A stretch of DNA of 64,000 nt from Ignavibacteria bacterium UBA2373 (GCA_002344005.1 DDTD01000046.1:66403-130402), one strand, 5' to 3'. Positions 2,662-48,829 are shown, numbered from the stretch's first letter. A program made the numbers and translations. Notes: generated by a model not told the origin, from the sequence alone.

Positions 2662-3936
2662 TCATTTCCATTGTTTTAAGGGTAAAAGCAGTCTTTCTAA
2701 GAGTCGTATATTTTCAGTAATTATTTCCACTTTCCCTTCCATATCTTGCTGAAAAGTAAGCGTTTTCCCATACGAAGTGGTCAATCCTTTATCTAAACTT
2801 ATGGTGGCAATATAAGCATTATCTTTTGCCGATAAAGACATAGTGCGTATGGTGCCGGCAACGGCTCCAAATTCCGTATAAGGATAATTATCGAATTTAA
2901 GTATCACAGGACTACCTATATGCACTTTACCTGCCCCATATTGTGGAACATTAACTTTACCTATAATCTCAATATTGGGAGGAATAACAGTAAAGACCTC
3001 ATCACCTTGATTTACTGACTGATTTTTACTCCACACTCGATAAAAAGAAATAGTTCCGTCAATAGGGCTGCGAAGCATATATTTTTTTTCCCAGAGTTCA
3101 ATAGCACTTTGTAAATTTTTATATGTTTCCCGCAAGCGAACTTCTGTAATATGAATTCTTTCTTGTCTTTGTTGTTCGGTTTCTTGTATATTCTTTTGTG
3201 CATCCACAACACGCATAGAATTATTGACAATATTTGCATCTAATGCATCAAGGGCATATTTTTTTTGCAGAAAATTACTTTCCGACAAAGCTAAATCTGC
3301 ATCAGAGATATGACCTTTTTGTCTGAGAACTTTATCATTATCCATTTTTCTTTCAGCAAGTTCCAAATCACGTTTCAACAATTCTTTTTGTTGCTTTAAT
3401 TTTTGCTCAACTGATTTAGCATAGGTAATTTGTTTTTCAATGGAGACAACACTTGCACTATTATATTCTGCGGAAGAATAAAAACGATAATCCGAAACAG
3501 CAAGTAAAAAATCGGAATATGCGGTTTGAACTTCACCCAGAGTAGAATATTCGGGAAAATACATATTTTCTGCAAGAATTGCTTTGGTTACTGATTGAGA
3601 AATAGAAGTTAATTGTTTCTTGATAATTGCAATTTTGATTGGATCGGCAGCGGTCTCAAGCAATGCAATCGGTTGACCTGCTTTGACCAAAGATGTGTCT
3701 TTGACATATAAATCCACAATACGTCCGGAAGCTTGTGCAATAATTTTAGCGGGCGGATCGGCTGATGTTAAACGACATTGAGCAATAACCACATCGGGAT
3801 AATGAATAAACCATGTTGCACCGATAATTATACACATAAAAATAAAAAGTGCAGCAATTCCCCACCGCATTGTCCATTGTGGCATTTGAGTGAGAATATC
3901 CTCAAACTCTTCACTGTGTTGAGTATGACGCGGCAT
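2662..3936 (-). CDS. HlyD-family membrane fusion/periplasmic adaptor protein (peptide exporter accessory)
   Basis: N-terminal TM segment, long coiled-coil middle region and C-terminal beta domain. Translationally coupled to the upstream C39-ABC transporter (3-nt gap). Confidence 0.75.
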   Translation of the reverse strand: MPRHTQHSEEFEDILTQMPQWTMRWGIAALFIFMCIIIGATWFIHYPDVVIAQCRLTSADPPAKIIAQASGRIVDLYVKDTSLVKAGQPIALLETAADPIKIAIIKKQLTSISQSVTKAILAENMYFPEYSTLGEVQTAYSDFLLAVSDYRFYSSAEYNSASVVSIEKQITYAKSVEQKLKQQKELLKRDLELAERKMDNDKVLRQKGHISDADLALSESNFLQKKYALDALDANIVNNSMRVVDAQKNIQETEQQRQERIHITEVRLRETYKNLQSAIELWEKKYMLRSPIDGTISFYRVWSKNQSVNQGDEVFTVIPPNIEIIGKVNVPQYGAGKVHIGSPVILKFDNYPYTEFGAVAGTIRTMSLSAKDNAYIATISLDKGLTTSYGKTLTFQQDMEGKVEIITENIRLLERLLLPLKQWK

Positions 3937-3938
3937 AA

Positions 3939-6128
3939 TTATGCTCCCAGTTCTAATTGATTTTTAACCAAAGAAAAATATGCGCCTCTTTGTGCAAGTA
4001 ATTGCTCATGGTTGCCCTGTTCAACAATTTTTCCATTATGTAAGACGACAATATTATCGGCATTTTTTACAGTACTCAAACGATGCGCTATAATCAATAC
4101 CGTTTTACCTTTGTATATAGTATTTAACTGCTCGACGATTGTTTTTTCATTCAAAGCATCTAAAGCACTTGTTGCTTCATCAAAAAATAAATAGTCGGGA
4201 TTTTTATATACTGCGCGGGCAATCAATAAACGTTGCTGTTGCCCTGTACTTAATCCTAAGCCCTCTTGCCCGATTTTGGTAGAATACCCTAAAGGCAAAC
4301 CTGTGATAAATTCTCGTATATTAGCCACTTTGACAGCATGCTCCAAGCGTTCGCGATCCAATTTTTCTTCACCGGGAGCAATATTGCGTGCTATGGTATC
4401 AGAAAAAATAAAACCGTCTTGCAACACGACACCACAAGCATCGCGCCATGAATGATGGGCTATAGATTGCAAATCAGTATCGCCAATGCTTATCGTTCCC
4501 GCCGTAGGTTCATAAAATTTTAACAATAATTTTAGCAATGTTGATTTACCGCTTCCACTGGTGCCCACAAGTGCAGTAATTTTTCCTTCAGGAATTGAAA
4601 ATGTCAATGAGTCTAATACGGCAGGGCTATGCGGACCTGTATAATGAAATGACAAATTATGTATATAAATTGACTTATCCTGTGGAACAACATTATATGG
4701 TAATAAATCGGGCTGTTCTTCATTCGGAGCTGCATGAATTTCTGCCATACGTTCAAGACTTAATCTGGCATCTTGCGATAAAAGAAAAAAGCCCAATAAT
4801 TGTTCCACTGGGCTATTAAGGACCCCAAGGATATAAGAAACCGACAGCATCATACCTATGGTCATATTCCCGTTCAGAACTTCATGAGCAGCAAGAAAAG
4901 TAATGACAATATTTTTTAACTCATTAATAAAGAGAATACCCGATTGTTGTTTTTGTGCTAAAGCCAATGCCTTTACATTAAGATGAAACATTTTTGCTTG
5001 CAAGCGTTCCCATTCCCATCTTTTTTGCATTTCAATATTATGCAATTTTATTTCTTGCACACCATGTATCAATTGAATCAAAGAATTTTGATTATCACTT
5101 AATTGCCTAAAACGTTTGTGATCTATGTCTGCCCTTTTTTTGAGAAATGCCAATATCCATAGAACCGAGAGCAGAGTTCCTGCAAAAAACACTATAAACA
5201 TTGTAGTGCTGTAAAGGAAAAACATTACACCGAAGACAAGTAAGGTAAAAAGAGAAAAAATAACAGAAATGGAAGATGAAGTGAGCAAGGTTTCAATGCG
5301 TTTATGATCTTGAATACGCTGCAGGATATCTCCTGTTTTCTTCGTTTCAAAAAATGAAATCGGCAAACGCATTATTTTTCTCAAAAAGTCGGCAATCAAC
5401 GAGATATTAATACGCGAACCAATATGCAATAAGATACGGCTACGTAAGAACTCAATGACAACCTTGCTTAAAAACAGGACAAGTTGCGATATCAGCACAA
5501 TAGTAACAAACTCAGTATTTCTTGTATTGATGCCAATATCCACCAAAGATTGTGTCAGCAAGGGGAAAATTATTCCTATCACACTTATGACAATAGCTCC
5601 TATAAGCAATTGTACAATGAATTGTTTGTAGGGTGCAATGTAGGTCGAAAGAAATGAGAATGCACTGCGTGAGTTTGTCACTTCATTTTCATCATCGGCA
5701 CGATGGAAGGAAGGCGTTGGTTCAAGGAGCAACACGATACCTTGTTGTTGTTCCGGCGGCAACCATCCCTTCAAAAATTCTGCTGAAGAATAGCGTATAA
5801 TACCATGTGCAGGATCGGCAACAGTGACTTTATTTTTTTCTACCTTAATGACAATCACAAAGTGTCTTTGTTCCCAAAATACAATGAGAGGAGTTGTTAA
5901 TGTGCGGAGAGTACCAAAATCCGATTTAGCAGCATGGGTGCGAAAGCCAATACTTTCTGCTGCATTGCTCAGCCCTAACAAAGAAACCCCTATGCGCGAG
6001 ATGTGAGTACGTTCACGCAATGTTTGCATGGTAAATGTTTTGCCATGATACTTGGCAATCATGCGTAAGCATGCCGCGCCGCAATCTTCTGCATCATGCT
6101 GTTTATATATTGGAAACCTTGAAAACAT
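3939..6128 (-). CDS. Peptidase C39 domain-containing ABC transporter (bacteriocin/peptide-processing exporter, ATP-binding/permease)
   Basis: The N-terminus has the C39 catalytic cysteine context QHDAEDCGAACLRM. There are six TM helices and an ABC domain with Walker A GTSGSGKST, signature LSTGQQQRLLIARA and Walker B FFDEATSALD. Confidence 0.85.
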   Translation of the reverse strand: MFSRFPIYKQHDAEDCGAACLRMIAKYHGKTFTMQTLRERTHISRIGVSLLGLSNAAESIGFRTHAAKSDFGTLRTLTTPLIVFWEQRHFVIVIKVEKNKVTVADPAHGIIRYSSAEFLKGWLPPEQQQGIVLLLEPTPSFHRADDENEVTNSRSAFSFLSTYIAPYKQFIVQLLIGAIVISVIGIIFPLLTQSLVDIGINTRNTEFVTIVLISQLVLFLSKVVIEFLRSRILLHIGSRINISLIADFLRKIMRLPISFFETKKTGDILQRIQDHKRIETLLTSSSISVIFSLFTLLVFGVMFFLYSTTMFIVFFAGTLLSVLWILAFLKKRADIDHKRFRQLSDNQNSLIQLIHGVQEIKLHNIEMQKRWEWERLQAKMFHLNVKALALAQKQQSGILFINELKNIVITFLAAHEVLNGNMTIGMMLSVSYILGVLNSPVEQLLGFFLLSQDARLSLERMAEIHAAPNEEQPDLLPYNVVPQDKSIYIHNLSFHYTGPHSPAVLDSLTFSIPEGKITALVGTSGSGKSTLLKLLLKFYEPTAGTISIGDTDLQSIAHHSWRDACGVVLQDGFIFSDTIARNIAPGEEKLDRERLEHAVKVANIREFITGLPLGYSTKIGQEGLGLSTGQQQRLLIARAVYKNPDYLFFDEATSALDALNEKTIVEQLNTIYKGKTVLIIAHRLSTVKNADNIVVLHNGKIVEQGNHEQLLAQRGAYFSLVKNQLELGA

Positions 6129-13889: not shown

Positions 13890-14951
13890 TCAGGGCTTCT
13901 TAAATTCTTTCCTTTTCAAGAGAGTCTCGTCTGTTAATGTATGGAGAAAAGCAACAAGTGCTTGTTTATCATCACTGCTTAACTTAAGAGGAACAATACG
14001 TTTATCTTTATTCACAAAGGCTTTTCCTCCATGGTCATAATGCTCTATGACTTCTTCCAACGTCGCTACACTGCCATCGTGCATATAAGGAGCTGTAACT
14101 CCACAGTTACGCAAGGTTGGTGTCTTAAATGTTCCAACATCTTTAGCTTGATTGGTAACCAAAGCTCTGCCTTTATCATAATAATGAAGATACAACCCTG
14201 TGGAATGAAATTTGTCATCAGTGAAATTGAAACCATTATGACACGATGCACATTGTGTTTGCTCACTGAAAAATAAATCTCGACCTCTTAGCTCCATCAT
14301 TGTCAATGCCGAAGTTTGTCCTTGGAGAAAGCGGTCATAGCGCGAATCGCCCGATAACACAATACGCACAAATGAAGCAAGTGCTTTGATGGCAAGACGT
14401 GAATTCGGCAGAGAATCTTTGCCGAATGCCGTACTAAATTGTGTCTTGTAATAGCTGTCAGCTTGTAAGATTTCGGTTACCTTACCCTCATCCGCATACA
14501 TCTCGACAGGGCTGAATAATGCACCATGTATCTGTTCTTCTAATGTAGAAGCTCTGCCATCAAAGAAAAATGCAGTTTGATAACTCGTATTAACAATTGT
14601 TGGTGAATTGCGCCCTCCATGTTCTCCATTGACTCCCCTGCTCACCGGCAAACCATCCGTAAAAGCCAGCTCTTGCTTATGACAATCAACACAAGCAAGC
14701 GTTTGATCTAATGATAGTCGTTTATCATAAAACAAATGTCTGCCAAGTTCAATTTTCTCCAAAGTCAAAGGATTGTCTTGTGGCGCAGGAATAGCAGGAA
14801 AACCAAACGGCACATCCATAACAGACGGTTGTTTAGTATCAGGTACAGCCGTTTCACTGCCGCATGAAATGAACACGGCACATGCAACAACACTAGAAAA
14901 TCTTACTAGTGTGTTACGATAACAATATGCGGATTTTGTCAAGAAATTCAT
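13890..14951 (-). CDS. Di-heme cytochrome c peroxidase (CCP/MauG family), lipoprotein-type signal
   Basis: Two CxxCH heme motifs (CVDCH, CASCH), conserved PTLRN and MHDG segments, signal/lipobox-like N-terminus. The annotated start overlaps the thyX 3' end by 38 nt, so the true start may lie downstream. Confidence 0.8.
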   Translation of the reverse strand: MNFLTKSAYCYRNTLVRFSSVVACAVFISCGSETAVPDTKQPSVMDVPFGFPAIPAPQDNPLTLEKIELGRHLFYDKRLSLDQTLACVDCHKQELAFTDGLPVSRGVNGEHGGRNSPTIVNTSYQTAFFFDGRASTLEEQIHGALFSPVEMYADEGKVTEILQADSYYKTQFSTAFGKDSLPNSRLAIKALASFVRIVLSGDSRYDRFLQGQTSALTMMELRGRDLFFSEQTQCASCHNGFNFTDDKFHSTGLYLHYYDKGRALVTNQAKDVGTFKTPTLRNCGVTAPYMHDGSVATLEEVIEHYDHGGKAFVNKDKRIVPLKLSSDDKQALVAFLHTLTDETLLKRKEFKKP

Positions 14952-15747
14952 TTTGCTCTCGCTTTTTAAGTCCGATTTCTTCCATTGTTATTTCCGAAGG
15001 TACGGAGCCATTAAGCATAGTTTTCAAAACTTGTAATTCAACTTTGGATAGTTTTACCGAACCTAACATATAATCTTCAAATGCTTCATAAGCCACGGGG
15101 ACTATTGCCTTCACTATATCAGCCATTGCTTCTGCGTACACCCTTATTTCATATTGCGCATGAGCATCAAGTCGTAAGCGAAGGAAATGGAATAAATTAT
15201 GCAAATCAACTTTCCAATACCATTCCGTATAATTCGATACAGGCAATACAATACGTGCAATCTCGCGTGCGACACCTTTTTCTAAAAGTGCTTCATAATG
15301 TGCGTAGGATGTATCGGCATGTTGCTGAAATGATGACAATATATCCATTGCCTCATTGGTATCGAATCCCTCTTCGGAACGCCCCTGTTTATTGGTGACG
15401 CTTTGCTTACGCAATTGCTGTTCATGAGGAGTATAGAACTCATCCTTCATCTCGGAATAACGACCGCTGTATTCATTCACATTCGCTGTACGATGACGTA
15501 TCCATTGACGTGCAACAAATATGGGTAACTTCACATGAAACTTAAACTCCACCATCTCAAATGGGGTTGTATGCTGATGGCGCATCAAATAACGAATAAG
15601 ACCTCTGTCTTCATGGACTTTCTTTGTGCCGGTGCCATACGATACTCGCGCAGCTTGCACTATCGAGTCATCATTACCCATGACATCAACAAGGCGCACA
15701 AACCCTTTATCTAAACATCTAAACTCTTTACCAACTAAATCTTGCAT
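14914..15747 (-). CDS. thyX: Flavin-dependent thymidylate synthase
   Basis: ThyX signature RHRTANVNEYSGRYS (RHRxxxxxxxSxR); 277 aa. Confidence 0.85.
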   Translation of the reverse strand: MQDLVGKEFRCLDKGFVRLVDVMGNDDSIVQAARVSYGTGTKKVHEDRGLIRYLMRHQHTTPFEMVEFKFHVKLPIFVARQWIRHRTANVNEYSGRYSEMKDEFYTPHEQQLRKQSVTNKQGRSEEGFDTNEAMDILSSFQQHADTSYAHYEALLEKGVAREIARIVLPVSNYTEWYWKVDLHNLFHFLRLRLDAHAQYEIRVYAEAMADIVKAIVPVAYEAFEDYMLGSVKLSKVELQVLKTMLNGSVPSEITMEEIGLKKREQNEFLDKIRILLS

Positions 15748-18804: not shown

Positions 18805-20274
18805 TTATGCCCCCCGAGCAATAGACAAAAATTCATCATAAAAAACAGAAGTAGCAATAATACCTTTTTCAAAATTCTCCAAAGAAAAATGTTCATCAGG
18901 TGAATGGGCATTTTCAGTATTAAGACCAAAACCCATCAATACTGTCGGTGCATTAAGTATGGTATCGAATAATAAACATACGGGAATAGAGCCACCTTCA
19001 CGACTCAACACAGGTTTTGCATTATAGGCATACTCTAATGCTTTTACCGCTGCTTTGACGCCATCGCTGTCACGGGGTGTCAAGGCAGGATCTGCTCCAT
19101 GCAAATTCGTCACTTTTACTTTCATCGTCGGTGGTGCAATAGTGCGTATATGCTCTTCAAACAAAGCAGCAATAGTATCCGTTTTCTGATGAGGCACTAA
19201 ACGCATGGAAATTTTTGCCGTTGCTTTTGATGGCAATACCGTTTTGGCTCCCTCACCGATAAAACCGCCCCATATACCATTCACATCCAAAGTGGGACGC
19301 GCACCGGTACGCTCATACGTCGAATAGCCAAATTCACCATACGTAGAAGAAATATCCAATTCATCGCAATATGCCTGATCATTATAGGGCAAACGTGCAA
19401 AATCCTCACGCTCCTCTTGTGTTAATGGCACAACATCACCATAAAAACCCGGAATAGTAATGCGTCCGAAACCGTCTTTCAACCGTGCAATAGTTTCTGC
19501 CAAAGCATTAATAGGATTATGCACGGCACCACCGAATGTGCCGGAATGTAAATCACGATTAGGACCCGTAAATTCCACTTCCATATAACAAAGACCACGC
19601 AGACCATAGACCAAAGAAGGTAAACCCGGAGCAAAAATCGGTGTGTCGGAAATCAGCACTGTATCGCAACGAAGCATCTCACGATATTCGTTCATAAACG
19701 GCTCTAAATTTGGGCTGCCTATCTCCTCTTCGCCCTCGATAAGCAATTTCACATTCACCGGCAAAGAACCGCGCTCGGCAAAAAGTGCTTCCAATGCTTT
19801 CAAATGCAAAAACACTTGCCCCTTATCATCCGTTGCCCCGCGAGCAAATACCTTACCATCACGAAACACAGGTTCAAAAGGAGGATTAGTCCATAAATGT
19901 AAGGGATCAACGGGCTGAACATCATAATGACCATAAAAAAGAACCGTCGGCGCATCAGCACCCGCACCAAGCCATTCGGCATAGACAATAGGATGACCCG
20001 GCGTGGGATATATTCTTGTTTCCGTCATGCCTATAGCACGGCAATGATCGGCTATCCATTCAGCACAGCGTTGCACATCCGCCGCATTCGACGGCTCAGT
20101 ACTGATACTTGGTATTGACAATAATTCCGTTAGCTCTTTCAACATCCGCTCTTTATTCTTTGCGATAAATGATTCTGTCATGGAAATATCCTTTGTAAAA
20201 CATGCAATAATATCAGCAAAAATAGCCACCACCACAGAAATACTGCCCAAATACCATTGATGAGTGAGTATCAA
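18805..20274 (-). CDS. M20-family metallopeptidase (dipeptidase/DapE-ArgE-like)
   Basis: HYDVQP, GATDDKG, EGEEEIGS and the dimerisation-domain pattern characteristic of peptidase M20; 489 aa. Confidence 0.75.
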   Translation of the reverse strand: MILTHQWYLGSISVVVAIFADIIACFTKDISMTESFIAKNKERMLKELTELLSIPSISTEPSNAADVQRCAEWIADHCRAIGMTETRIYPTPGHPIVYAEWLGAGADAPTVLFYGHYDVQPVDPLHLWTNPPFEPVFRDGKVFARGATDDKGQVFLHLKALEALFAERGSLPVNVKLLIEGEEEIGSPNLEPFMNEYREMLRCDTVLISDTPIFAPGLPSLVYGLRGLCYMEVEFTGPNRDLHSGTFGGAVHNPINALAETIARLKDGFGRITIPGFYGDVVPLTQEEREDFARLPYNDQAYCDELDISSTYGEFGYSTYERTGARPTLDVNGIWGGFIGEGAKTVLPSKATAKISMRLVPHQKTDTIAALFEEHIRTIAPPTMKVKVTNLHGADPALTPRDSDGVKAAVKALEYAYNAKPVLSREGGSIPVCLLFDTILNAPTVLMGFGLNTENAHSPDEHFSLENFEKGIIATSVFYDEFLSIARGA

Positions 20275-20330: not shown

Positions 20331-20742
20331 TTAACTTCTATATCTCTCCCCTTTTCTTCTATGCTCGTCGGATTAACTTCTATATCAGTCGTCTCATTTG
20401 CTATGGCTTACTTTTTATCTTCTATGCTCGACGGCTCATTTTTTATACTCGTCGGATTAACTTCTATGCTCGACGGCTCACTTGCTATGGCTTGCTTTTT
20501 ATCTTCTATGCCTGTCGGATTAACTTCTATGCTCGTCGGATTAACTTCTATCTCAGTCTGCTCACTTTCTATGGCTGTCTGCTCATCTTCTATGCTCGTC
20601 GGATGACTTGCTATGGCTGTCGGATTAACTTCTATACCTGTCTGCTCAACTTCTATGCTCGACGGCTCATCGTCTATACTCGTCGGATGACTTACTATAT
20701 GCAGAACTTTATCATCTATGCGCAGAACTTGATCAACTATAC
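20331..20742. repeat. Tandem array of ~20 copies of a 21-bp unit (consensus TTCTATGCTCGTCGGATTAAC)
   Basis: The 21-bp periodicity is visible directly. The array is open as heptad-repeat ORFs on both strands (minus: SIEVNPT; plus: FYARRIN). Confidence 0.9.
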
Positions 20743-20945
20743 GTCCAGATGGTCTCATGCCGCGCCCAGATGGTCTTCTGCCGCGTCCAGATGGTCTCTC
20801 GCCGCGTCCAGATGCTCTCTCGCCGCATCCAGATGGTCTTTTGCCACGTCCAGATGGTCTCTCGCCGCATCCAGATGGTCTTCTGCCACGTCCAGATGGT
20901 CTTTTGCTGCGCCCAGATGGTCTCTCGCCGCATCCAGATGGTCAA
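20743..20945. repeat. Tandem array of ~10 copies of a second 21-bp unit (consensus CCAGATGGTCTCTCGCCGCGT)
   Basis: Abuts the first array directly. Open as PRPDGLL (plus) and DHLDAAR (minus) heptad ORFs. Followed by a Lys/Glu-rich ORF tail to 21179. Confidence 0.9.
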
Positions 20946-21180
20946 TTTTCAGGGAAAGTTGCCAACAATCACCCCCCAGAATCCAAAAATCCACCCCCAG
21001 AAGGTAAAAAACGAGGAAAAGAACAGAACAAGCGAACTAAAGATGAAAACGAGCAAGCGAAAGAAGCAGAAAAACGAGGAAAAGAAGCAGCGCAAACACT
21101 CATGGCAAAAGAGCAGCAATACACAGATATTCAGATGCGTAGAATAGAAGGGAAAAAGAGTAGCGGCGAAGTTTTCTGAT

Positions 21181-21505
21181 TAAATCCCGCAGGGATGGAA
21201 TGTTTATAGAAATAAATACATCCACCCCGTCAGACTGCGTCTGACACCCCTCAATGAGGGGAATTTTTGAAACGCAATAGCGGATAAATCCCGCAGGGAT
21301 GGAATGTTAATAGAAAAGGATGTAAAAAAATATAAAATCCCGCAGGGATGAAAGGTTTATAGAAATAAATACATCCACCCCGTCAGACTGCGTCTGACAC
21401 CGAGCAATGAGAACCCACCCCGTCCTTCGGACACCCCTCCGATGGATGGGATGAAATTCAATAGTTCATAAATCCCAAAGGGATTGAACGTTTATAGAAT
21501 TTGCG
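21181..21505. repeat. Cluster of REP/BIME-like palindromic units (GC-rich mini-hairpins with 3-nt loops) in an AT-rich background
   Basis: Three copies of AAATCCCGCAGGGATGGAATGTTTATAGAA. Two copies of ATCCACCCCGTCAGACTGCGTCTGACACC. CCCCTCAATGAGGGG, GTCCTTCGGAC and AATCCCAAAGGGATT are also present. The same modules recur at 23716-23952. Confidence 0.8.
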
Positions 21506-21530
21506 TTTGATGTGATGGGCGAATTCCCGT

Positions 21531-21563
21531 AAACCTATAAGGTTTTCAAAACCTTATAGGTTT
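21531..21563. promoter_or_regulatory. Perfect 16-bp-arm inverted repeat AAACCTATAAGGTTTT-C-AAAACCTTATAGGTTT (candidate operator site or strong hairpin)
   Basis: Both arms are identical in reverse complement with a 1-nt spacer. The repeat lies ~160 bp upstream of the first toxin cassette. Confidence 0.5.
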
Positions 21564-21719
21564 GGATAAGGAAATCCATCTTTATGACCCGCGCTTGGCG
21601 CAATGACGATTCATTGAGTCAATACTCTCGCATCAGCCAAAAAATGAGTATTTTTGGCAAGGCATCAAAAGCATTGAGCAAAGCCACTCAACCATAAGCG
21701 GGCGAAAAATGTTGATGAG

Positions 21720-22076
21720 ATGGCGGAGGGTAGAAGTTATGTTAATTTAGCTAGTGAATCACGAACAGCTCACATAATTGCAAGTGATGCAACAGGTGGT
21801 GGACATGCATGGTTTGGAAGTTGGAAAAGCTTTTCAAATGGAATTACGGGTCAAAAAACAATGTTTCCGATTACTTGGAGTAAAAATAAAATTATGCATG
21901 CTGCTTCGGATGTTTTAGTAAATAACCCAATTGCAAGGCAAACAGGATCAGCCGGAAGTCTTTTTGAAAGAAGTGGAAGACTATCAAGATTCACAACTTT
22001 TGGGGAATATCAAGGAGTTAAAATAAAAGTAGTTTGGGATAATACAGATATAATTACAGCACTTCCTATAAAATGA
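21720..22076 (+). CDS. Orphan polymorphic-toxin C-terminal domain, bacterial EndoU-like RNase (118 aa, no delivery or N-terminal region)
   Basis: GGGHAW...KTMFPITWSKNKIMHAASDVL...GVKIKVVWDNTDIITALP matches the EndoU_bacteria pattern (GGxH, K..FP..Ws..kI, C-terminal ...iTAyP). An in-frame stop lies 45 nt upstream of the ATG, so the gene is a standalone module. AT-rich. Confidence 0.55.
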   Translation: MAEGRSYVNLASESRTAHIIASDATGGGHAWFGSWKSFSNGITGQKTMFPITWSKNKIMHAASDVLVNNPIARQTGSAGSLFERSGRLSRFTTFGEYQGVKIKVVWDNTDIITALPIK

Positions 22077-22360
22077 ATAAAATGAATAGTAAAAAAGAGA
22101 ATATGATAATTCAATTATTAAAAAATTTACTCTCTAATGCTTTAATGCTTGGAGTTAAAGGGGAATGTAAATTAATAGTTGATGAGTATATCGAATTTAA
22201 TGAATTCGGCTTAGCGTTCGAACACATTGTTTATGAGTTACATGAAAATAATATTCGAATCCCCAATGAACTTTATTTCGACTTTAAAAATGTTGCGGAT
22301 TTGATGGAGCTTAATGAGAATGAATATCAGCCTAGGTTATTAGAATTAATTTTGAAATAA
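22073..22360 (+). CDS. Putative cognate immunity protein (95 aa)
   Basis: Start ATG overlaps the toxin stop (ATGA). Small acidic protein, the typical toxin-immunity arrangement. Confidence 0.5.
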   Translation: MNKMNSKKENMIIQLLKNLLSNALMLGVKGECKLIVDEYIEFNEFGLAFEHIVYELHENNIRIPNELYFDFKNVADLMELNENEYQPRLLELILK

Positions 22361-22473
22361 TCTTATGTAGTTGCCGCTAAGACGATTACGAAACTGTTAA
22401 ACCCTGCTATCAAAATAACTGAGAGCGGTTTAGCACATACATTGGATAGGCATACTTTTAATGGTATTCCAAG

Positions 22474-22698
22474 ATGGCTGATAAGAGTAAGTGTTTTGAT
22501 GCTTCTGAGGTTGAAAGCCTAATTCGGCAGGGAACACAAATGCCAATGAAAAGACAGATTAATGGAAACTTCTCTCGTGTTGTAAATGCAGGAAGAAATA
22601 TTGGCATAGACAGAGCAACAGGGAATCTAACATCAATTTACACAATCATTACTAATGGGCAAGGCAATTTAATTACTGCATTACCAGGTATCCCATAA
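22474..22698 (+). CDS. Second, truncated orphan toxin C-terminal fragment (74 aa), related to the C-terminal half of the first module
   Basis: PMKRQINGNF...TSIYTIITNGQGNLITALPGIP parallels PIARQTGSAG...KIKVVWDNTDIITALPIK of module 1. It lacks the GGGH/K-FP catalytic N-half. A stop lies 15 nt upstream of the ATG. Confidence 0.45.
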   Translation: MADKSKCFDASEVESLIRQGTQMPMKRQINGNFSRVVNAGRNIGIDRATGNLTSIYTIITNGQGNLITALPGIP

Positions 22699-22709
22699 TA
22701 AGAACAAAT

Positions 22710-22994
22710 ATGGCGTGGACAATCATTTTAGAAGATGAAAATAAAGAACCAATAATCACACTAAGCAATGAGCTTGAGATTAAGTTCAATGACGATAAGA
22801 GTAACTTTAAACTACTTTGCTTCTTAGACGCTTATGGCGACACCATTTTTAACCGCTTACAAATGGATGATTTAATCAAGGATTTACAAAATTTAAATTT
22901 GATAGAAGCTAATCCTCTTTTAGATGAGATCAAAATACTTGCAGAACGCTGCAAAAATGGAGAACATACATATTTAGCCTTTTATGGTGACTAA
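22710..22994 (+). CDS. Putative immunity protein of the second cassette (94 aa)
   Basis: Begins 11 nt after toxin fragment 2; small acidic protein with no similarity to immunity protein 1, as expected for polymorphic cassettes. Confidence 0.45.
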   Translation: MAWTIILEDENKEPIITLSNELEIKFNDDKSNFKLLCFLDAYGDTIFNRLQMDDLIKDLQNLNLIEANPLLDEIKILAERCKNGEHTYLAFYGD

Positions 22995-23043
22995 AGACAA
23001 AAGCCCAGAGTAGGTGGCTACCTCCTTCATTCTTTGAAAACTA

Positions 23044-23079
23044 TGAGACATTTCGATTAGCCCCATCCCGATTTCCCGA
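23044..23079. repeat. 36-bp direct repeat TTGAAAACTATGAGACATTTCGATTAGCCCCATCCC (copy 1), followed by imperfect palindrome GCCCCATCCCGATTTCCCGACGGCGAGAAAAAAAGAGGGGC
   Basis: 34/36 identical to 23716-23751. Both copies lie 10-50 nt after the stop of a cassette gene. Confidence 0.8.
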
Positions 23080-23165
23080 CGGCGAGAAAAAAAGAGGGGC
23101 AAAGTTTTGAGGAATGGAACATCAACATCAAACAATGATAGATAACTTTAATATAAGGTGTTTTT

Positions 23166-23705
23166 ATGAAATATGAATTTAGTGACATGGGAATTCCTGT
23201 GAAGTTTACGAAACAGCAAGAAAAATTAATGAAAAAATTTATCATATCTTTTGTAGAAGGCGTATCAGAAATTTGCAAAGAAAAAATAAATCCTTTTATT
23301 AAAAAAAGATACCATTACTATGAAGCTCGCGGATTGTATATAGGAGCGAGTCACTACAGTTATAATTGGCAGATGCTTGATTATTGTGATTTTAGAAACG
23401 CTAATTTAGCTAATGAATATGATTATGTTGGTACTGAAGGTCCATGTTTAGCATTTTCATTTTGTATTCAAGACGATAAAGAACGTTTCTCGAAAATTCC
23501 AATAGTTGCGACAGTGTTTCTTTGTAAGGTTGAGATATTGTTAGATTATAAAGATTTAGAATATTCATTTACGGTAGATTTTAGAGATGAACATAAGCTT
23601 GAAGAAGTTTTCGAAAAAGAGTTGCAAAATATTTTTGAATTTATCAGTGATTCTGTTGATAATATAATCTACGATATAAACAATAATTGGAAAATAGAAG
23701 AGTGA
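23166..23705 (+). CDS. Hypothetical cassette protein (179 aa), possible orphan immunity protein
   Basis: AT-rich ORF flanked exactly by the two 36-bp direct repeats; no recognisable catalytic motif. Confidence 0.4.
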   Translation: MKYEFSDMGIPVKFTKQQEKLMKKFIISFVEGVSEICKEKINPFIKKRYHYYEARGLYIGASHYSYNWQMLDYCDFRNANLANEYDYVGTEGPCLAFSFCIQDDKERFSKIPIVATVFLCKVEILLDYKDLEYSFTVDFRDEHKLEEVFEKELQNIFEFISDSVDNIIYDINNNWKIEE

Positions 23706-23715
23706 GAAGTAAAAG

Positions 23716-23952
23716 TTGAAAACTATGAGGCATTTCGGTTAGCCCCATCCCTCAATGAGAACCCACCCCGTCCTGCGGACACCCCTCCGATGGATGGTAT
23801 GAAATTCATTGCGTCACGGAATCCCGAAGGGATTGAACGTTTATAGAATTTGTGAAAAATCATCCACCCCGTCAGACTGCGTCTGCCACCCCTCAATGAG
23901 GGGAATTTTGAAATTCATTGCGTCATGGAATCGCAAAAGGATGGAATGATAA
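23716..23952. repeat. Second REP/BIME-like hairpin cluster (direct-repeat copy 2 plus the same hairpin modules as 21181-21505)
   Basis: Contains GAGAACCCACCCCGTCCTGCGGACACCCCTCCGATGGATGG, AATCCCGAAGGGATTGAACGTTTATAGAATTTG, ATCCACCCCGTCAGACTGCGTCTGCCACCCCTCAATGAGGGG and GGAATCGCAAAAGGATGGAATG. All match units in the upstream cluster. Confidence 0.8.
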
Positions 23953-23975
23953 TAGAAAAAACAATCCGATAAGTC

Positions 23976-25037
23976 TTACCGTCCGGTGAGTGTTTGTGCC
24001 ACATGGGTTAATAAAGGCACTAAGCGCGGATAATTCATACGTCGTGGTCCGATAATGCCGAGAGAGCCCTTGGCATCGCCGAATTTATAATGCGATACAA
24101 TAACGCTATAATCATTGAGCAATTCCGATCCCATTTCGGAGCCAATCATCACAAAAGGTTTATTATCGCCTGTGTCTTGTCTGTCAAGGATATGAACAAT
24201 TAAATCTTCATTTTCTATGAGTTCTATGACACCTTTTATTCTGTCACGTGACTCAAATTCGGGATATTCGAGCAGATTTTGCGTGCCGGCAATATGCACT
24301 GCCTCATCGGGTGAAGTATAATCAGCAAATAATGTTTCCACCGAGTCAATAAATAATCGCAAATAGGCATTGACTTCGGCGGGTAAACGGTCACGAATAA
24401 TTACCGTAAAATTATCACGGAGAAAAGAAACAGGTCTGCCGCTGATTTTTTCATTGAGCAATCGCGCAATTTCATCTAATGCCTGATAATCAATTTCAAA
24501 ATTAGCTTCGAGAGTGACTGTGCGGACAATATCGGATTGCAATTCGACCACAACGAGTAAGCGCGTGGAGGAAAGAGCAATCAAACGCAGACGTTGTAAT
24601 ATGACATCCGATAAATTGGGTAAAACCACAATGCCAAGATAATGTGATAAAGAGCTGAGTATTTTCGAGGCATCGCGCAAGACATGTTCCCGCGAGGAAT
24701 TCTGAAGATTCTCTTGGACAAATGTGGCAATTTGATTTGTGACATGCTCTGTTTTCATAAGCGAATCCACATAGAGCCGATAGCCCTTATCGGTGGGGAT
24801 ACGCCCTGCGGATGTGTGAGGATGGGCAATAAATCCCATATCTTCCAAATCACTCATAATATTGCGTATGGTGGCGGGACTGAGCTTATAATGCTCTTCC
24901 AGATATTTTGATAAAAAGCGCGAGCCGATTGGTTCAGCCGACAAAATATACATTTGTATAATTGCCCGCAAAATATCCTTTTCCCTTTCGGTTAATTCCC
25001 TGTCACGGTGATGATATGGAAGAAAATCTGCTTTCAT
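23976..25037 (-). CDS. hrcA: Heat-inducible transcriptional repressor HrcA
   Basis: N-terminal winged-helix region ELTEREKDILRAIIQMYILSAEPIGSRFLSK and the HrcA C-terminal domain pattern; 353 aa. Confidence 0.85.
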   Translation of the reverse strand: MKADFLPYHHRDRELTEREKDILRAIIQMYILSAEPIGSRFLSKYLEEHYKLSPATIRNIMSDLEDMGFIAHPHTSAGRIPTDKGYRLYVDSLMKTEHVTNQIATFVQENLQNSSREHVLRDASKILSSLSHYLGIVVLPNLSDVILQRLRLIALSSTRLLVVVELQSDIVRTVTLEANFEIDYQALDEIARLLNEKISGRPVSFLRDNFTVIIRDRLPAEVNAYLRLFIDSVETLFADYTSPDEAVHIAGTQNLLEYPEFESRDRIKGVIELIENEDLIVHILDRQDTGDNKPFVMIGSEMGSELLNDYSVIVSHYKFGDAKGSLGIIGPRRMNYPRLVPLLTHVAQTLTGR

Positions 25038-30216: not shown

Positions 30217-30335
30217 AATGAATGACCTCCAATAAGAAAAAAAATATTTCAAAAAAACATCAAATCATCAGTCAGTCAGATTTGATTTGGAGGGATTTCC
30301 TGCCATAGCAATGGCGAGGTCCTATCCCTGATTAT

Positions 30336-31473: not shown

Positions 31474-34400
31474 TTATCGCTGTGATTGAAAAATTCTATT
31501 AAATGCACTGGTAGTATAATTTACCGTTGTTTGTGATTTTCGTGCATCGGCAGCATATTTAAACGATCGAGTAAATTGTTGACGACTCTCTTGTTCTTGC
31601 TGCGATTGACCTTGGCGATTATGCGAAGAATATTGTGAATTATGGGACATTTCTTCCTCTTTTTTTCGCACAGTCACTTCCACGCTATCAAGTTGCATGC
31701 CTTGTTTACCAAATTGATCTTTTAATTGAGGAAGCTGTGACTCAATTATCTGTTTCGTTTGCTGTGAATCAACTTGTATTTGTAATTGTGTATCAGAATT
31801 TAAAGTGGAATATCGCACAATGACTGTACCTAACTCTTCAGGTTGCAATACCATACGTACTGTTCCATTTCCTTGTGTTTTTGAGGAAATATATTCATGA
31901 GCCTTATCCGCAAAATGCTGTACCGGTAATAATTCCATTATTTCCATAGATGCAACCTTTTTTATAGTAGGTATGCCGACTTTTTGGACTGGCTGAATAT
32001 GAACATTGTGAGGAATAATGATAGAATCTTGAGAAGGGAAATTACTATTTTCAGTCAAGACAAAATTTTGAGAACTATCTGCTACTCCTAAAGATTGATT
32101 TGAGATTGGTGATAATGTCGTTTGTATTTCATTTTCTACATCAATATTATCACTTTTTGACTTAATACTTGAGTTTTGCTGCAATAGATTGCTTTGATTA
32201 TTAATATTATTCGTTATCTCCCCTCTTGGTACTACTCGCTCAGAAGTAGAGGTAATGAACATATTATTAAAAGTATTGTTTTTTTCTACATTCTGATTCG
32301 CAACTGCATTTTTTAACGAAGAACGATAGTGTGATAATTCTTTTTTGAGTAAACTATTATCTTGGTTTGTTGAATTTTGTTGAGTTAGATTTTCGGACTT
32401 TTTAATTATACCATCATTAAAAACGACTGTTTTTTCATATTCAACAAAAGACAAACCTTTCTTTACTTCAGATTTTTTTTCTACCTCACCGGATATTTGC
32501 TTAGAAACAAAACTTCTTTGTATTTTTTCCGAACCATCGTTTGTTTCCAACGAATTCAAAACGTTCATTTTAACTTCATTGGGAATAGTCTCGACTGATT
32601 TTTCAAGGTGGATCTTTTTTGTATTTCGAGAATCAACTTGAGTGTTCTGTATTATAGCGTCAGATGGAGAAGTAGCACTATCATTATAGCGAATCTTAAA
32701 GACAATATTTTTAACCGGAACACCGACTGACGACGCCTTTTCAATAATGGAATGAAGTGCCATTACCGTATTCGGAATAACTTGATGAGAAGTTTGTATA
32801 TCAGAAGGTGGAGTTACAACAATTGCTGAATTATCATGGGTTTTGTTCTTTAAGACATAGAGTGCACCATCGCTGGTTTGTAATGGCTCATGAACAGTAC
32901 GATCAAAAGCCGAAGTATTAAGTATTTTCACAGCTTTAGAATCAGTATCATCATTGATTGTTAATTCTTCATCATTCTCAATAACTTCCTGTTCATCTAA
33001 GTTCTCCGGAACAATTGATTCATAGGTATTCTTTAGTGTATGAACTAATATTGTATCTGTCGGTTGTATAATTGATTTTGATTTGTCATCATTTTGTTTA
33101 ATAGTATGTTGATTGGTTTTCGATGCAATACTTACATTGTCATCAATTCTACTATCCGTTCTTTCTGTAAAAGGAATATTTGACAAAGTGTTAAGTTGTA
33201 TATTCTCCTTGGTTTTTTTACTGAGATTATGTACACCTTTATTTTTCAAAGATTCCTGTTTAGATAAAGATACTATTTGTGGACTATTGTCATTTTTCAC
33301 CATTACATTGTCATCAACAATACCAGCATCACCATTAAATGTATCATTTTTTGAAACTTGATAAACATTGTTATCTAATTGAGTTGATTTTTTTATCTCA
33401 GTAACAACATTCTCTTTCGAGGACAATGCAACAGTATTAGTTTCTTGACTTTTACCTATAGTAACTCGATCATAAGTAAGCGACTCCGAAGATGTCACGG
33501 TAGCATTTAACTTGTTGTCATTTATAACAGCATTGTCTTCAGCTTCCGTAAGAATCGCATTATTATGAGTATTTGTTGTATTATGAGTAATAGTATTTTT
33601 CGATTTTTGATTAAGTTCTGTCAATAAAGTACTATTACTTTTATCACTGTACAGTAATCCGGCATCAGTTTCTTGTACTTCGTCAACGACAGGTTTAGGC
33701 GGAACCTTATATATTACCTCTGATTTGAAAACTTTATCGTGTTTGACAGTATCTAAGTTATTATCTGAAAATGTATTCTTTTTCTGATTCTGATGTACTT
33801 TCGGTGTATTTCCTACAGCATTCGATTCTCCCTTAGATGCACTACTTTCAACTGAATTAAGATTATTGATAGTTTTTAATAAAATTGCTTCTTCTTCTGG
33901 AGAATATTCAACAGACGGAATATCACGCTTTTTAAATTTCATATTGTTGTCATCTGAATCAAAAACACCATAATCAGATGTATTTTTCACAGTCGAATCA
34001 TCGTTTGAGATAATGTCAGAAATTAATTTTATATCCTGCTTGGAAGTATTTCGAGTACCATTATCAATTGATTCATGAATTATTTGCTCAGTAGATGTAT
34101 TATTTACAACACTATTATAGACCGAGTCTTTTTTAGTCTTATTTACAACAATATTATTGACATTGTTTAAGCCAATATCTTTTAGGCTAATGCTATAAGA
34201 ATCATTATTTTCTAAAGCAGATATCTGCTCAGAATAAACCATATGATTATTTGACTTTTTTTTGTCTGATAAAACATTTAATTCATTTACAGTGCTATTT
34301 TCTTTATAATTTAAGGTATCTGATGAATGTACTTTTTGTTGTCCGTCTATATCATAGTCTTTTAATCTATTACGGGACAGCCTGTCAACAGTATATCCTT

Positions 34401-37400
34401 GCACAGTCTGATTTTTATTCTCTTTTGTATGAAGATCTGAAATATTACTTTCATGCGGTGATCTATACATGATATTATCACTCGAATCAACAGATATTTC
34501 TTCTTGAGAATTGTCTAATATAAGATTTACACGATGTTCTGAACTGTTTTTCTCACCACCGTCTGCTGTCTGACGTGCACCTACTTTATCCGATATAACT
34601 GCGTTTGTAGCAGATTTCACTTTTGCAAATGATAATCTTTCTAATGGTTTTGCACTTTTTTCTTGTATTCCTGATGTTGCTTTGGATTTACTATTACCTT
34701 TCAACAACTCAATTTCTGAACGAACTGTAACAGATTTAGCGGAAAAATCTAATTTCGCCGATGATTCCTCCGAAGAATTATCTATGACAATACTGTGTTC
34801 AGTAAGATTTTTCTTATCACCGTCTGTCTGATGTACACCCAATTTATCAGATGTATCGTTTTCTAATTTTGCAAATAATGATTTCTCTAATGGTTTTGTA
34901 CTTTGTTCTTGTATTCCTGCTACTACTTTGGATTTACTATTACCTTCCAATGACTCAATTTCTGAACGAACAATAACAGATTTAGCGGAAAAATCTAATT
35001 TCGCCGATGATTCCTCCGAAGAATTACCTGTTACAAGAGCAACATTACTTTCTGAAAGATTTTTCTCACCACCATCTGTCTGATGTACACTCAATTTATC
35101 AAATGTATCGTTTTCTGATTTTGTAAATGATGATTTCTCTAATGGTTTTGTACTTTGTTCTTGTATTCGTGCTACTGCTTTGGATTTACTATTACCTTCC
35201 ATTGACTCAATTTCTGAACGAACAATAACAGATTTAGCGGAAAAATCTAATTTCGCCGATAATTCTTCCGAAGAATTATCTGTTACAAGAGCAACATTAT
35301 GTTCTGAAAGATTTTTCTCACCACCGTCTGCTTGATTTACTCCTAAATTATTAGTAAAAACTTCGATTATTTCTTTATCGTCAATAGATTTTGTACTTGA
35401 TGTTTTATGAGTAAACGTATTTGCATACGTTTTAGAGTTATCTCTAGTACTTTCAATAGGAATAGAATTCTCAGTATTGCTTCCGTTTGTGATTTCTTTT
35501 ATTGATTCAGAAAAGAAATGTCCGGATGTTTTTTGAATTATCTTTTCAATACTTCTTTCTGATTCTTCGACATCAATAGTACGATTTGATTGTTTTGATT
35601 TTATTGAAGAAAATTTATCATAATCGCTTTCATTATATTCCGTACCTGTATGTATTTCTACGTTTTCACCTGTTCTTAATACATCTTGAAAAGAAATTTT
35701 GGAGTTTTTTGCATTACCTTGATCTATTGTCTGATCAATAATAGAGTCTTTAGCATATTGCCTAACAGTTTGCTGTTGTTCTAGCGAAATGCTCTTTGCA
35801 ACAAGATTTTTCTCATTATGTTCATTTTGTGATGTTTCACTATATGTTATTTTTTGATTGTTTGCTTGTTGAGATGTATCTGGCATTGACATGACTTTAG
35901 ATTCAGGTCTTTTTTCCTCATTTTGATTATATGATAGATGATTTTCAATCTGAGGATGGTTTATATCCGCGTCAATATCATCATTATAAATATTGTTTTG
36001 CGATGATTTTATTGTTTGAATGATTGAGGTCTTAGTACGGATAGTGCTGTTTTCAATATTTACTGATTTATCATCTTCCTTCAATGTATTCACATACATT
36101 CCTATAGCAGGTGCTTTTTCAGATGATAGTATTTTTGATGTCGTATTTTCAAATTGTGCCACTGTGTTTACTTCATTATTAGTCTTCTTCACTCCGGCAT
36201 TCTTAATTTTTGCTTCTGCATCACTATTATATGCGATGATATTTTCTCTATCGTTCTGACTTTTCAATTCAGACTTATCATGAATAAGCTGTTCATTGAC
36301 TATGTCTGTTTTTTCCAATGTATTTCTCGAATTGCTTGAATTGTTGTATTTATTTGCATTCGATATCGGTTGAAATTTTTCTGTTAATTGTGCATGCTTT
36401 TCATTATTTCTATGAAACTCAAGACTATTTTCTTCAGGAAATAATTTTTCAATGTATTCTTCAATAGCAGCATTCTGCAAACTCGGATCTACCGTTGTTA
36501 TTGATATTGATTTCCTTGTATTTTTATTATCTATATTATCTGTATTGGAATTTTCATCTCCAACAGGCTGATTAATTTTGTTTTGTTGTTCATCACCTAT
36601 ATTATCTAAATTGGAATTTTCATTTCCAACAAGTTGGTTAATCTTGTTTTGTGATATATATGTGTCTTTAGCTCGACTTTTATTTACTACATTTTCTTGC
36701 AATGAATCACTCCCATGATAACTCATTGCTTTATCTTTATACGGGAATGTATTATTCTTTACGGCTTTGTCTGATTCACTATTATTTACATTTTGTTGAG
36801 ACTGCAGGACTCCACCTTTGATAGTATCATTATAAAACCTCATTGGTATATTCTGTTCTTCATTTGTACCATTTTGAAGCGGTAATGATGTATTTGATGC
36901 TTTATTTGACCCTTGAGGTAGATTTAAGTTCTTATTAGCAGTTATACTTTCATTTGTCGAAGTTATTGTATCAGGATTTGATATAGACTCAGCATGATTA
37001 TTTAGATTTACGACTTTAGTATGCTGTGGAAGTACAGTTTTCTCTTGTAAACCATTATTAACCGGTTTATGATATACTGATCCAAATACTTGTTCAAAGC
37101 TTACTTCCGTATTTTGATTGTTGTACTTTACAGTCACTTGATCTTTACTAAAGGAACTCTCCAACGGTTGTGATTTTTGTTGCATGGGTATCCATAAATT
37201 TTGGATTACCATATCAATAATGTGCGGTATTTCCTCCTGTGATGTTGTCGAAATATCAACACGTACTTGAATATCCTCATTATGTGAGGAAAGTAAATTG
37301 ATTTGAACTTTACTTTTATTGTGCACCTTCATTGAATCACTAAAATCTCGTATCATGGATTCAATTTCTGAAGATTTTTCCTTATTTTTCGATTGTGTAT

Positions 37401-45517: not shown

Positions 45518-45736
45518 ACTTACTTTTCCTCGACAATTACTTCTCGCAACACTTCCGCTCCCAAGTTCAATGCCAATCAATGCTCATAAACTATCACATA
45601 ACACAAAGCAATCCGAAACCTTGATTTCGCTACACTTACCAAAACATAACCACATAATTCACCCTCATAAACAAAGGACAATACCATCCATCTGAACAAT
45701 AATAACCATCACAAACAATCAAACAATCAGCAAATA

Positions 45737-45926
45737 ATTACGAATGGTCAATTATCAATTACGAATGGTCAATTATCAATTACGGATGGTTAATGGTCAA
45801 TTACGGATGGTTAATGGTCAATTACGGATGGTCAATGGTCAATTACGGATGGTTAATGGTCAATTACGGATGGTTAATGGTCAATTACGAATGGTTAAGT
45901 ATCAATTACGAATGGTTAAGTATCAA
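45737..45926. repeat. Tandem array of ~9 copies of a 21-bp unit (AATGGTCAATTACGGATGGTT), 220-410 bp upstream of the flgB start
   Basis: Perfect 21-bp periodicity. Open in two plus-strand frames (MVNGQLR / MVNYGWL heptads). Closed in all three minus-strand frames. Confidence 0.9.
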
Positions 45927-48748: not shown

Positions 48749-48829
48749 ATTTTGATTGCTTTCATCTTCGGAGAATATCGGGAAATCCCTATTGCGCAGC
48801 AGTAGGGATTTTTTTGTGGAAAATCATCG

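Follow-up and report, generated by a model that had tools for sequence, protein, structure and literature searches.

Two clusters of short GC-rich hairpins enclose an islet of small open reading frames (ORFs) in a 64,000-nucleotide stretch of Ignavibacteria bacterium UBA2373 (GCA_002344005.1, DDTD01000046.1:66403-130402; this whole stretch is called the window below). We consider it probable, if well short of certain, that these clusters are a mosaic resembling the repetitive extragenic palindromes (REPs) and bacterial interspersed mosaic elements (BIMEs), or the Neisseria intergenic mosaic elements (NIMEs), with a core repeat drawn from a cross-phylum hairpin-tail family that is partnered with an IS200-like Y1 enzyme. 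The observations behind this reading are the anatomy of the modules, covariation in the core hairpin, the dispersal of the modules, the linkage of the core family to a Y1 gene, and the coincidence of the clusters with the borders of the islet. REP-type repeats and tyrosine transposases are well studied in Proteobacteria; to our knowledge, both are poorly described in Bacteroidota, Acidobacteriota and neighbouring phyla.

Module anatomy of the two hairpin clusters

Cluster 1 (21183-21563) and cluster 2 (23716-23957) are both non-coding mosaics assembled from five module types, all on the plus strand. A first-pass annotation made from the sequence alone had described GC-rich hairpins with GNA-type triloops here, and ATCCC-NNN-GGGAT, GTCAGAC-TGC-GTCTGAC, GTCC-TNC-GGAC and CCCCTC-AAT-GAGGGG are indeed read at these places; the last had been given as CCCCTCA-A-TGAGGGG and fits better as a 6-bp stem closed by a 3-nt loop. 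ATCCC-NNN-GGGAT is present five times in the window (21184, 21288, 21337, 21472 and 23821) against 0.04 expected from shuffles, always within the two clusters, and its triloops (GCA three times, AAA and GAA) are of the G/A-N-A type. The recurrence of modules that had been proposed holds for 21181-21563 and 23716-23957; three further places named for related hairpins, 30290-30330, 46480-46510 and 48786-48812, have no match to the motif. The last of these (AAATCCCTA...TAGGGATTTTTTT) is a longer, terminator-like hairpin with a T run, downstream of ORF 47546-48748 and without the core motif.

The core module spans 29 nt, AATCCC-nnA-GGGAT-nn-AAnGTTnATAGAA, and consists of a 5-6 bp hairpin with a G/A-N-A triloop and a tail, AAYGTTWATAG; five of its copies are good and a sixth is degenerate. 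Unit A (three copies) runs CCACCCC, hairpin GTCAGAC-TGC-GTCTGAC, A, hairpin CCCCTC-AAT-GAGGGG and AATTTT, and unit B (two copies) runs CCACCCC, hairpin GTCC-TnC-GGAC and then ACCCCTCC.... The perfect 33-bp palindrome reported at 21531-21563 is confirmed, with perfect 16-nt arms around one central base, and is referred to here as PAL. The fifth module, D8, is a 36-nt unit in two copies, each shortly 3' of a stop codon. The features are as follows.

21183-21211, plus strand: core copy 1, hairpin ATCCC-GCA-GGGAT and tail GGAATGTTTATAGAA; 4 nt past the stop of ORF 20757-21179, on the left border of the strain-variable segment
21221-21268, plus strand: unit A copy 1, CCACCCC, GTCAGAC-TGC-GTCTGAC, A, CCCCTC-AAT-GAGGGG, AATTTTT; second hairpin terminator-like
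21287-21315, plus strand: core copy 2
21336-21364, plus strand: core copy 3
21374-21413, plus strand: unit A copy 2, second hairpin degenerate (repeat scan)
21414-21460, plus strand: unit B copy 1, CCACCCC, GTCC-TTC-GGAC, ACCCCTCC...GGATGGG; a decayed member of a widespread double-hairpin family
21471-21499, plus strand: core copy 4, AATCCC-AAA-GGGATT and tail GAACGTTTATAGAA
21531-21563, no strand assigned: PAL, perfect 16+1+16 palindrome AAACCTATAAGGTTTT-C-AAAACCTTATAGGTTT (repeat scan, folding)
21564-23715, plus strand: islet between the clusters, five small ORFs
23034-23069, plus strand: D8 copy 1, 40 nt past the stop of ORF 22710-22994
23716-23751, plus strand: D8 copy 2, 11 nt past the stop of ORF 23166-23705
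23762-23808, plus strand: unit B copy 2
23820-23848, plus strand: core copy 5, AATCCC-GAA-GGGATT and tail GAACGTTTATAGAA
23863-23909, plus strand: unit A copy 3
23929-23957, plus strand: core copy 6, degenerate (AATCGCAAAAGGATGGAATGATAATAGAA); its end lies 2 nt inside the right homology breakpoint (23960)

Across the 64-kb window every module is restricted to the two clusters and the D8 copy in the islet, that is, to one locus. All modules sit outside called ORFs, the hairpins measuring 13-17 nt plus the tail, and a coding reading of the clusters was rejected, the overlapping ORFs of 41-57 aa being repeat artefacts. Folded in silico as single-stranded DNA, as had been advised, the modules bear out the proposed structures: cluster 1 reaches -68.9 kcal/mol (z = -7.2), PAL z = -6.6 and unit A z = -4.4. 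We also considered PAL as a "double-footed" fusion of two tails; the basis was only a shared CTATAA/TTATAG hexamer, which is too little to claim it.

No Rfam family reached threshold on the window clusters or on the canonical relatives described below. Two sub-threshold matches were recorded, whalefall-1 on a flanking hairpin (24.9 bits against 37) and, on the minus strand of core 4, CRISPR-DR25 (22.4 bits where the gathering score is 36, E = 0.47). The latter, together with small, co-oriented, promoter-less ORFs separated by structured repeats, could evoke a degenerate CRISPR array or integron attC-like cassette recombination sites, both of which are contradicted by the anatomy and exceedingly improbable. 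The cores of cluster 1 are irregularly spaced (104, 49 and 135 nt) and the would-be spacers are themselves repeats, while the CRISPR-DR25 score falls far below the gathering score. As for attC, the repeats stand at the ends of the islet and not one per cassette, the R''/R' GTTRRRY cores are absent and the tails (GTTTATA or GTTAATA) do not fit GTTRRRY. Neither integrase nor cas genes were identified by Pfam among the ORFs near the locus and at 44.6-51.1 kb.

The core belongs to a hairpin-tail family found in many phyla

A core pattern of 21 specified bases, searched in one genome per species (596 Gb; chance expectation below one match), was found in at least 118 stretches from at least eight phyla. 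These include many families of Bacteroidota, Acidobacteriota (Pyrinomonadaceae, Blastocatellia), Calditrichota, Ignavibacteria and Candidatus Kapaibacterium, as well as Verrucomicrobiales, Victivallales, Cloacimonadota, Fidelibacterota and Smithellaceae. Single genomes can carry multiple copies (e.g., 13 copies in 5 stretches of OY781463.1), and in nearly all of the 118 pattern-match loci the element lies between ORFs of at least 100 aa. The family can be defined as a GC-rich stem of 5-7 bp, a 3-nt loop (mostly G/A-N-A), 1-3 nt and AAYRTTTATAG, the tail being near-invariant as AAYGTTTATAG two bases past the hairpin, on its 3' side (on the other strand, CTATAAACRTT on the 5' side). Cores 1-5 of the window fit this definition exactly, and core 6 fits with 6 mismatches.

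Canonically, the elements are arranged as inverted doublets, [hairpin]AAATGTTTATAG, ~22 nt, CGACCCCnnnGGGGTCG, ~25 nt and CTATAAACATT[hairpin], and such doublets are often in tandem (L081, L093, L120 and L125). In the first of these loci (3100-4700, minus strand), seven 189-bp tandem units each comprise the last ~36 nt of a fused methylase/specificity restriction-modification (R-M) gene and a hairpin-tail doublet, as if the 3' end of the gene had been repeatedly duplicated together with the element.

When only the tail was used as an anchor, a perfect hairpin of at least 5 bp preceded 174 of 194 tails, against 6 of 194 at a control offset; these hairpins have 34 different stems, with loops that are mostly GAA, GTA, GGA, AGA or AAA. 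Covariation was measured on 73 distinct tail-anchored elements outside the search pattern, in fixed register, which avoids circularity. Paired cells amounted to 79%, compared with 61% in shuffles (a value of 79% was reached by none of 500), and double-sided changes numbered 95 versus 33; all six pairs covary, and slid registers give only 21-57% pairing. The hairpin of the core family is thus kept by compensatory change while the tail stays fixed. The motif C-GNA-G is known from unusually stable DNA mini-hairpins, and the tail-bearing strand is strongly biased toward such loops (GAA/GTA/GGA). Wobble pairs are split evenly between the strands (7 vs. 7), and so lend no support to an RNA helix and are otherwise uninformative.

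Linkage of the core family to an IS200-like Y1 gene

The commonest Pfam family among the 150 ORFs nearest to core matches is Y1_Tnp (IS200-like), with nine ORFs. By tblastn, the same protein of ~153 aa was detected in 12 of the 118 listed core loci, usually 20-250 nt from the repeat, and in none of 120 control loci (746 kb) fetched for unit B. In a reciprocal test, four Y1 proteins obtained by an independent protein search and chosen regardless of repeats led to 10 loci, every one of which has a hairpin-tail doublet starting 4-65 nt past the tnpA stop codon; these association statistics rest on a few hundred kilobases of sampled loci. In two loci (L034 and L035), a leader-hairpin lies just upstream of tnpA and a hairpin-tail downstream, giving an IS200-like or REPtron-like frame.

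The protein carries DHIH...WQ...YIxNQxEHH, the signature published for TnpA-Y1 subclass 1.2. It passes the NCBIfam IS200/IS605 model (65-69 bits, cut-off 55) and falls below the cut-off of the RayT model (24-36 bits against 80), and its nearest solved structures are the TnpA proteins of ISDra2 and IS608. An earlier suggestion had been to look for a REP-associated tyrosine transposase (RAYT) or an IS200/IS605-type Y1 enzyme; the linked gene is IS200-like and not a RAYT, and the window itself has no Y1 transposase gene. A regular expression for a RAYT-like partner (HUH plus Y-x2-NP) had returned one gene, in L020, which is flanked by a different REP and was dropped; it missed the actual partner because the subclass-1.2 protein has Y-x3-Q. 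A search of the protein collection gave at least 8000 candidates of the family, at 75-90% identity. Relatives also occur in Calditrichia, Fidelibacterota and a metagenome-assembled genome titled Candidatus Onstottus arcticum, and a TnpA profile search of viral contigs returned none.

Several of these tnpA genes lie within R-M operons (L093, 451-7052; L105, 1052-7441; L126-L128; L132-L134), laid out as hsdR-tnpA-[hairpin/tail doublets]-hsdM-hsdS or methyltransferase-tnpA-hsdS. The start of tnpA and the stop codon upstream of it share 1 nt, pointing to a domesticated gene that is co-translated. Five tandem doublets stand between tnpA and a cas9-like gene (HNH_4, RuvC_III) in a Weeksellaceae isolate that has been cultured (GCA_029664315.1; L125, 2480-3400). 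A literature search for an association of IS200 with R-M operons turned up nothing specific.

Dispersal of the mosaic and its other modules

The remaining modules are dispersed as well. In a Candidatus Kapaibacterium locus (L123), where modules were mapped allowing substitutions only, the order is core, 30 nt, PAL, 8 nt, A, B, core, PAL, A, and a second cluster reads D8-A-B-core-PAL; the two bracket a group of small ORFs, as in the window, downstream of an Ig/PKD protein sorted by the type IX secretion system. PAL trails a core by ~30 nt in the window and in L123, L141, L169 and L238. A metagenome scan for unit B yielded at least 120 stretches (gut, hot-spring, sludge and other samples), in which the intact unit is a double hairpin, CCACCCC[GTCC-TnC-GGAC]A[CCCCTCC-n3-8-GGAGGGG]AAT. 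In nine of the metagenome stretches listed, and in L123, the A-B(-core-PAL) mosaic stands between flanks that have no relation to those of the window. At least nine such contexts, together with a unit B placed in frame in a sister strain (see below), indicate that the mosaic and its parts are dispersed in the lineage. Unit B also forms head-to-tail arrays with a period of 42-45 nt in hot-spring and other metagenomes (L139, L145, L172, L227 and others), several of them preceded by GCGTGAGGGATGCGGAGGGCGGCGAAA; these array-type loci contain no Y1 gene.

PAL had been put forward in the first-pass annotation as a candidate operator site. It is not a stand-alone operator, recurring as a module in the same mosaic position at other loci. 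A broader form of the idea, that PAL and perhaps the stems as duplex are operators or nucleoid-protein sites controlling the toxin/immunity genes of the islet, has a precedent in the IHF-binding motifs of some BIMEs. It would account for a perfect 33-bp dyad, as long as a dimeric regulator's site typically is, which stands ~155 nt upstream of the islet's first ORF and is conserved with small changes in another species (L123). However, L123 has three copies of PAL, which in L123 and L169 follow the small-ORF group in a fixed mosaic position, no regulator gene is adjacent, and in a 3-mismatch search PAL half-sites elsewhere in the window were not above chance. We therefore regard such a binding array as very unlikely.

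Some E. coli REPs act as RNA-level punctuation, and the hairpins could likewise be transcribed with the plus-strand cassettes and serve as terminators, protectors of 3' ends or processing sites, insulating the expression of adjacent cassettes. The modules do share the strand of the islet ORFs, with core 1 beginning 4 nt past one stop codon and the D8 copies 11 and 40 nt past others; the terminator scan picks up the second hairpin of unit A, which has an AATTTTT run (21247-21261); and relatives have the doublet within operons, in the 3' region of tnpA. On the other hand, that hairpin is the only one of about 15 modules to satisfy the terminator consensus on the plus strand (the minus strand of cluster 1 gives two matches, 21280-21294 and 21337-21349), the mosaic in L169 is antisense to the adjacent ORFs, and canonical doublets hold both orientations side by side. 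The even split of wobble pairs lends no support to selection on an RNA helix, and no Rfam family matches. Punctuation of this kind is, in our estimation, quite unlikely to be what the clusters are for.

The islet, its borders and the sister strain

The islet has the layout of orphan toxin/immunity cassettes, as its five-ORF arrangement implies. With a Pfam match (E = 5e-10) to positions 66-128 of a 129-position profile, ORF 21720-22076 is an orphan C-terminal fragment of a bacterial EndoU toxin; an immunity-like ORF of 95 aa (22073-22360) overlaps it. A second short ORF with a toxin-like tail resembling the first (22474-22698) is likewise followed by an immunity-like ORF (22710-22994, 94 aa), and the fifth encodes 179 aa (23166-23705). 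GC content in the islet is 32-36% and its GC skew is positive, as opposed to negative in the surroundings. The flanks comprise an M20 peptidase gene (18805-20274, minus strand), hrcA (23976-25037, minus strand) and strain-variable 21-bp tandem arrays.

An exact-protein look-up with HrcA matched an uncultured bacterium of activated sludge (metagenome-assembled genome GCA_016713455.1) and several metagenomes, and yielded loci of a sister strain (L001 and L004). Outside a strain-variable segment, which measures ~2.8 kb in the window, the two strains share 99.4% and 97.4% identity. On the right, homology stops at 23960, two bases past the last core; on the left it fades at ~21175, just before the first core. 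At the same place the sister strain has a different, R-M-like island of 3.6 kb (a Trypsin_2 protein, an Eco57I-like methylase and a 236-aa ORF), and no core element was found across its 21 kb. As the ends of homology flank the clusters and the sister strain lacks cores, the mosaics are the outermost parts of the strain-variable segment. The exact coincidence of cores with the islet ends suggests that they serve, or formerly served, as portable homology or break points in the exchange of islets.

The sister island is itself bounded by inverted repeats, AATAGAGTGTnT(T)TAAA, at L001 11083-11101 and 14479-14497, which could mark where a different mobile unit ends at this hotspot. Nearby, a lone unit-B core (L001 14712-14758) is placed in frame inside ORF 14585-15487 (minus strand), a putative gene that is the repeat-rich counterpart of window 20757-21179 and whose predicted product thereby gains ...TTPSFGHPSGGWD....

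The same borders could be the ends of an insert. The clusters might be inert baggage, a decaying higher-order tandem repeat that arrived with a horizontally acquired toxin/immunity fragment and is now inactive, which we judge unlikely but by no means far-fetched. Degenerate copies (core 6, unit A copy 2 and unit B with its broken second hairpin), an order core-PAL-A-B that behaves as a ~200-nt repeat with deletions, the distinct composition of the islet and the lack of a transposase gene nearby would all be expected of it. It accords less well with the presence of the same mosaic in at least nine contexts with unrelated flanks, with the in-frame unit B that stands alone in a different ORF of the sister strain, or with core-family pairing kept by compensatory change across phyla. 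Taken together, these features do not fit simple neutral decay of the family, although the activity of the window copies is not thereby proven.

Proposed mechanism and relation to known systems

Returning to the REP/BIME-like or NIME-like mosaic with a Y1 partner, we propose the following. The subclass-1.2 enzyme would most likely bind the hairpin on single-stranded DNA; the analogy is with IS200/IS605 TnpA and RAYT, and the HUH Y1 enzymes IS608, ISDra2 and RAYT are its established basis. It would also cut and rejoin in or beside the conserved tail, cleavage by Y1 being predicted from this analogy, and could so spread or rearrange the elements. In this lineage the core has joined other hairpin modules (A, B, PAL and D8) to give a higher-order unit with the fixed order core-PAL-A-B. 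In the window, the mosaics at the ends of the islet would most plausibly act as portable homology patches or hairpin-prone break points for gain or swap of islets, a causal role that, like present activity of the window copies, we infer.

A number of observations weigh against this. The window holds only five cores plus one degenerate copy at one locus, and all six are direct, on the plus strand, in place of the alternating or inverted arrangement of BIMEs and REPINs (REP doublets forming hairpins); no inverted CTATAAACAT partner exists in the 64-kb window. Neither the window nor the 21-kb loci of the same species contain a Y1 transposase gene, and no linkage to one was seen beside units A and B in the 120 unit-B loci. 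With cores all direct, without inverted partners and with no tnpA nearby, the window copies may be relics. A border position is equally expected if the repeats hitch-hiked on an inserted fragment. Moreover, subclass 1.2 has been listed as "REP: no", without typical IS200 end structures or insertion sequence properties (Quentin et al., 2018; PMC6006769), so that the linkage stands on the present sampling.

The REP/BIME architecture proposed in the first-pass annotation survives in part: there is an extragenic palindromic mosaic, a dispersed core family and a linked Y1 (HUH) gene. As in the REP, BIME and REPIN elements and RAYTs of Proteobacteria, the repeats are short extragenic palindromes whose hairpin foot adjoins a conserved single-stranded motif. 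Singletons, inverted doublets and clustered mosaics all occur, and a Y1 HUH transposase gene of low copy number has copies on its flanks. Cases of insertion into ORFs in frame are known there too, comparable to unit B in L001. Membership of the classical REP-RAYT system nevertheless fails on three features, namely the GTAG/GTGG tag, a RAYT of class 2 as partner and, for the window copies, an alternating orientation. In place of GTAG, there is a tail of 11-12 nt (AAAT/CGTTTATAG), and the stem has only 5-7 bp with a triloop. The enzyme is of class 1 (IS200-like subclass 1.2, Y-x3-Q-x2-HH) and not a class-2 RAYT (Y-x3-NP). The window copies are all direct, whereas canonical relatives elsewhere do form inverted doublets, and the sequence family extends across at least eight phyla, compared with one genus or family.

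The ends of IS200/IS605 elements offer a second comparison, IS608 and ISDra2 being the closest solved relatives of the linked protein. At their ends the hairpins are subterminal and cleavage takes place ~10-19 nt away from the hairpin foot, and the gene in L034 and L035 is flanked by hairpins alike. Unlike in those elements, the two hairpin-tail ends here are reverse complements of each other, more than 90% of listed elements have no adjoining tnpA, and tnpA is usually single-copy, 75-90% conserved and domesticated in appearance, often overlapping the upstream stop by 1 nt in R-M operons. As to an IS200/IS605 insertion sequence at the locus itself, there is no tnpA or tnpB between or near the clusters.

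The dRS3 repeat of Neisseria has the form ATTCCC-N8-GGGAAT. The likeness of the window mosaics to NIMEs, in which dRS3 inverted repeats flank RS units, lies in their being intergenic mosaics where a palindromic repeat of ~20 nt alternates with other families, and in the concentration of NIMEs by variable or surface-related genes, for which a role as recombination substrates has been proposed (PMC3733652). The sequences are unrelated and the phylum different, there is no CGTC tag or CCA tail as in the "CGTC-1" repeats (Di Nocera et al., 2013; PMC3733652), and no dedicated Y1 gene has been reported for NIMEs (PMC3733652).

The linked protein agrees with the published account of subclass 1.2 in signature (DH[IV]H, WQ and YIKNQKEHH-like), length (~150 aa) and low copy number, and departs from it in the doublet beside every sampled gene and in taxa beyond the Cyanobacteria and Bacteroidetes in which the subclass was mostly found (Quentin et al., 2018; PMC6006769). 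What appears to be new is a near-invariant tail of 11-12 nt with a covarying hairpin in at least eight phyla, linked to a Y1 class listed without cognate repeats or transposon features. The searchable literature, of which our coverage was incomplete, yielded no report of the subclass-1.2 partnership, the long conserved tail or the cross-phylum spread, and nothing specific on a described REP family of Bacteroidota. If the link is true, a very large orphan family of proteins (at least 8000 clusters) would gain a DNA substrate, and a concrete oligonucleotide would be defined for binding and cleavage assays. The link may also account for a class of spurious small ORFs, and for assembly breaks, seen in these genomes.

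That the repeats and the enzyme occur in R-M operons, beside cas9 and at a strain-variable toxin/R-M hotspot raises the idea that hairpin repeats may aid the turnover of defence and competition islands. In its strongest form, the subclass-1.2 enzyme and its doublets would be an ancient, domesticated, cross-phylum system residing in R-M operons and defence/competition islands and shuffling cassettes via single-stranded DNA hairpins, similar to REPIN-RAYT systems with a host function in island plasticity, and the window mosaics would be footprints of a live hotspot; we hold this to be a rather improbable extension.

Other repeats and features of the window

Independent tandem arrays, each with a 21-bp period, occur at 20356-20698, 20742-20943, 45736-45919, 46717-47085 and 48841-48887. 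The two that adjoin the clusters vary in copy number and sequence between strains, and 48841-48887 is a short, inverted relative of the array at 45736-45919. At ~47000-48500, GC skew shifts from between -0.24 and -0.32 to between +0.20 and +0.27 regardless of gene strand; this switch, which could be a replication landmark or an inserted element, is flanked by 21-bp arrays and by an unusually long stretch with few convincing ORFs (45.6-47.5 kb). Finally, an ORF of 2165 aa (31474-37971, minus strand) is annotated with a flagellar hook-length (Flg_hook) domain and includes a 252-bp tandem repeat at 34621-35351 (2.9 copies, 88% matches).

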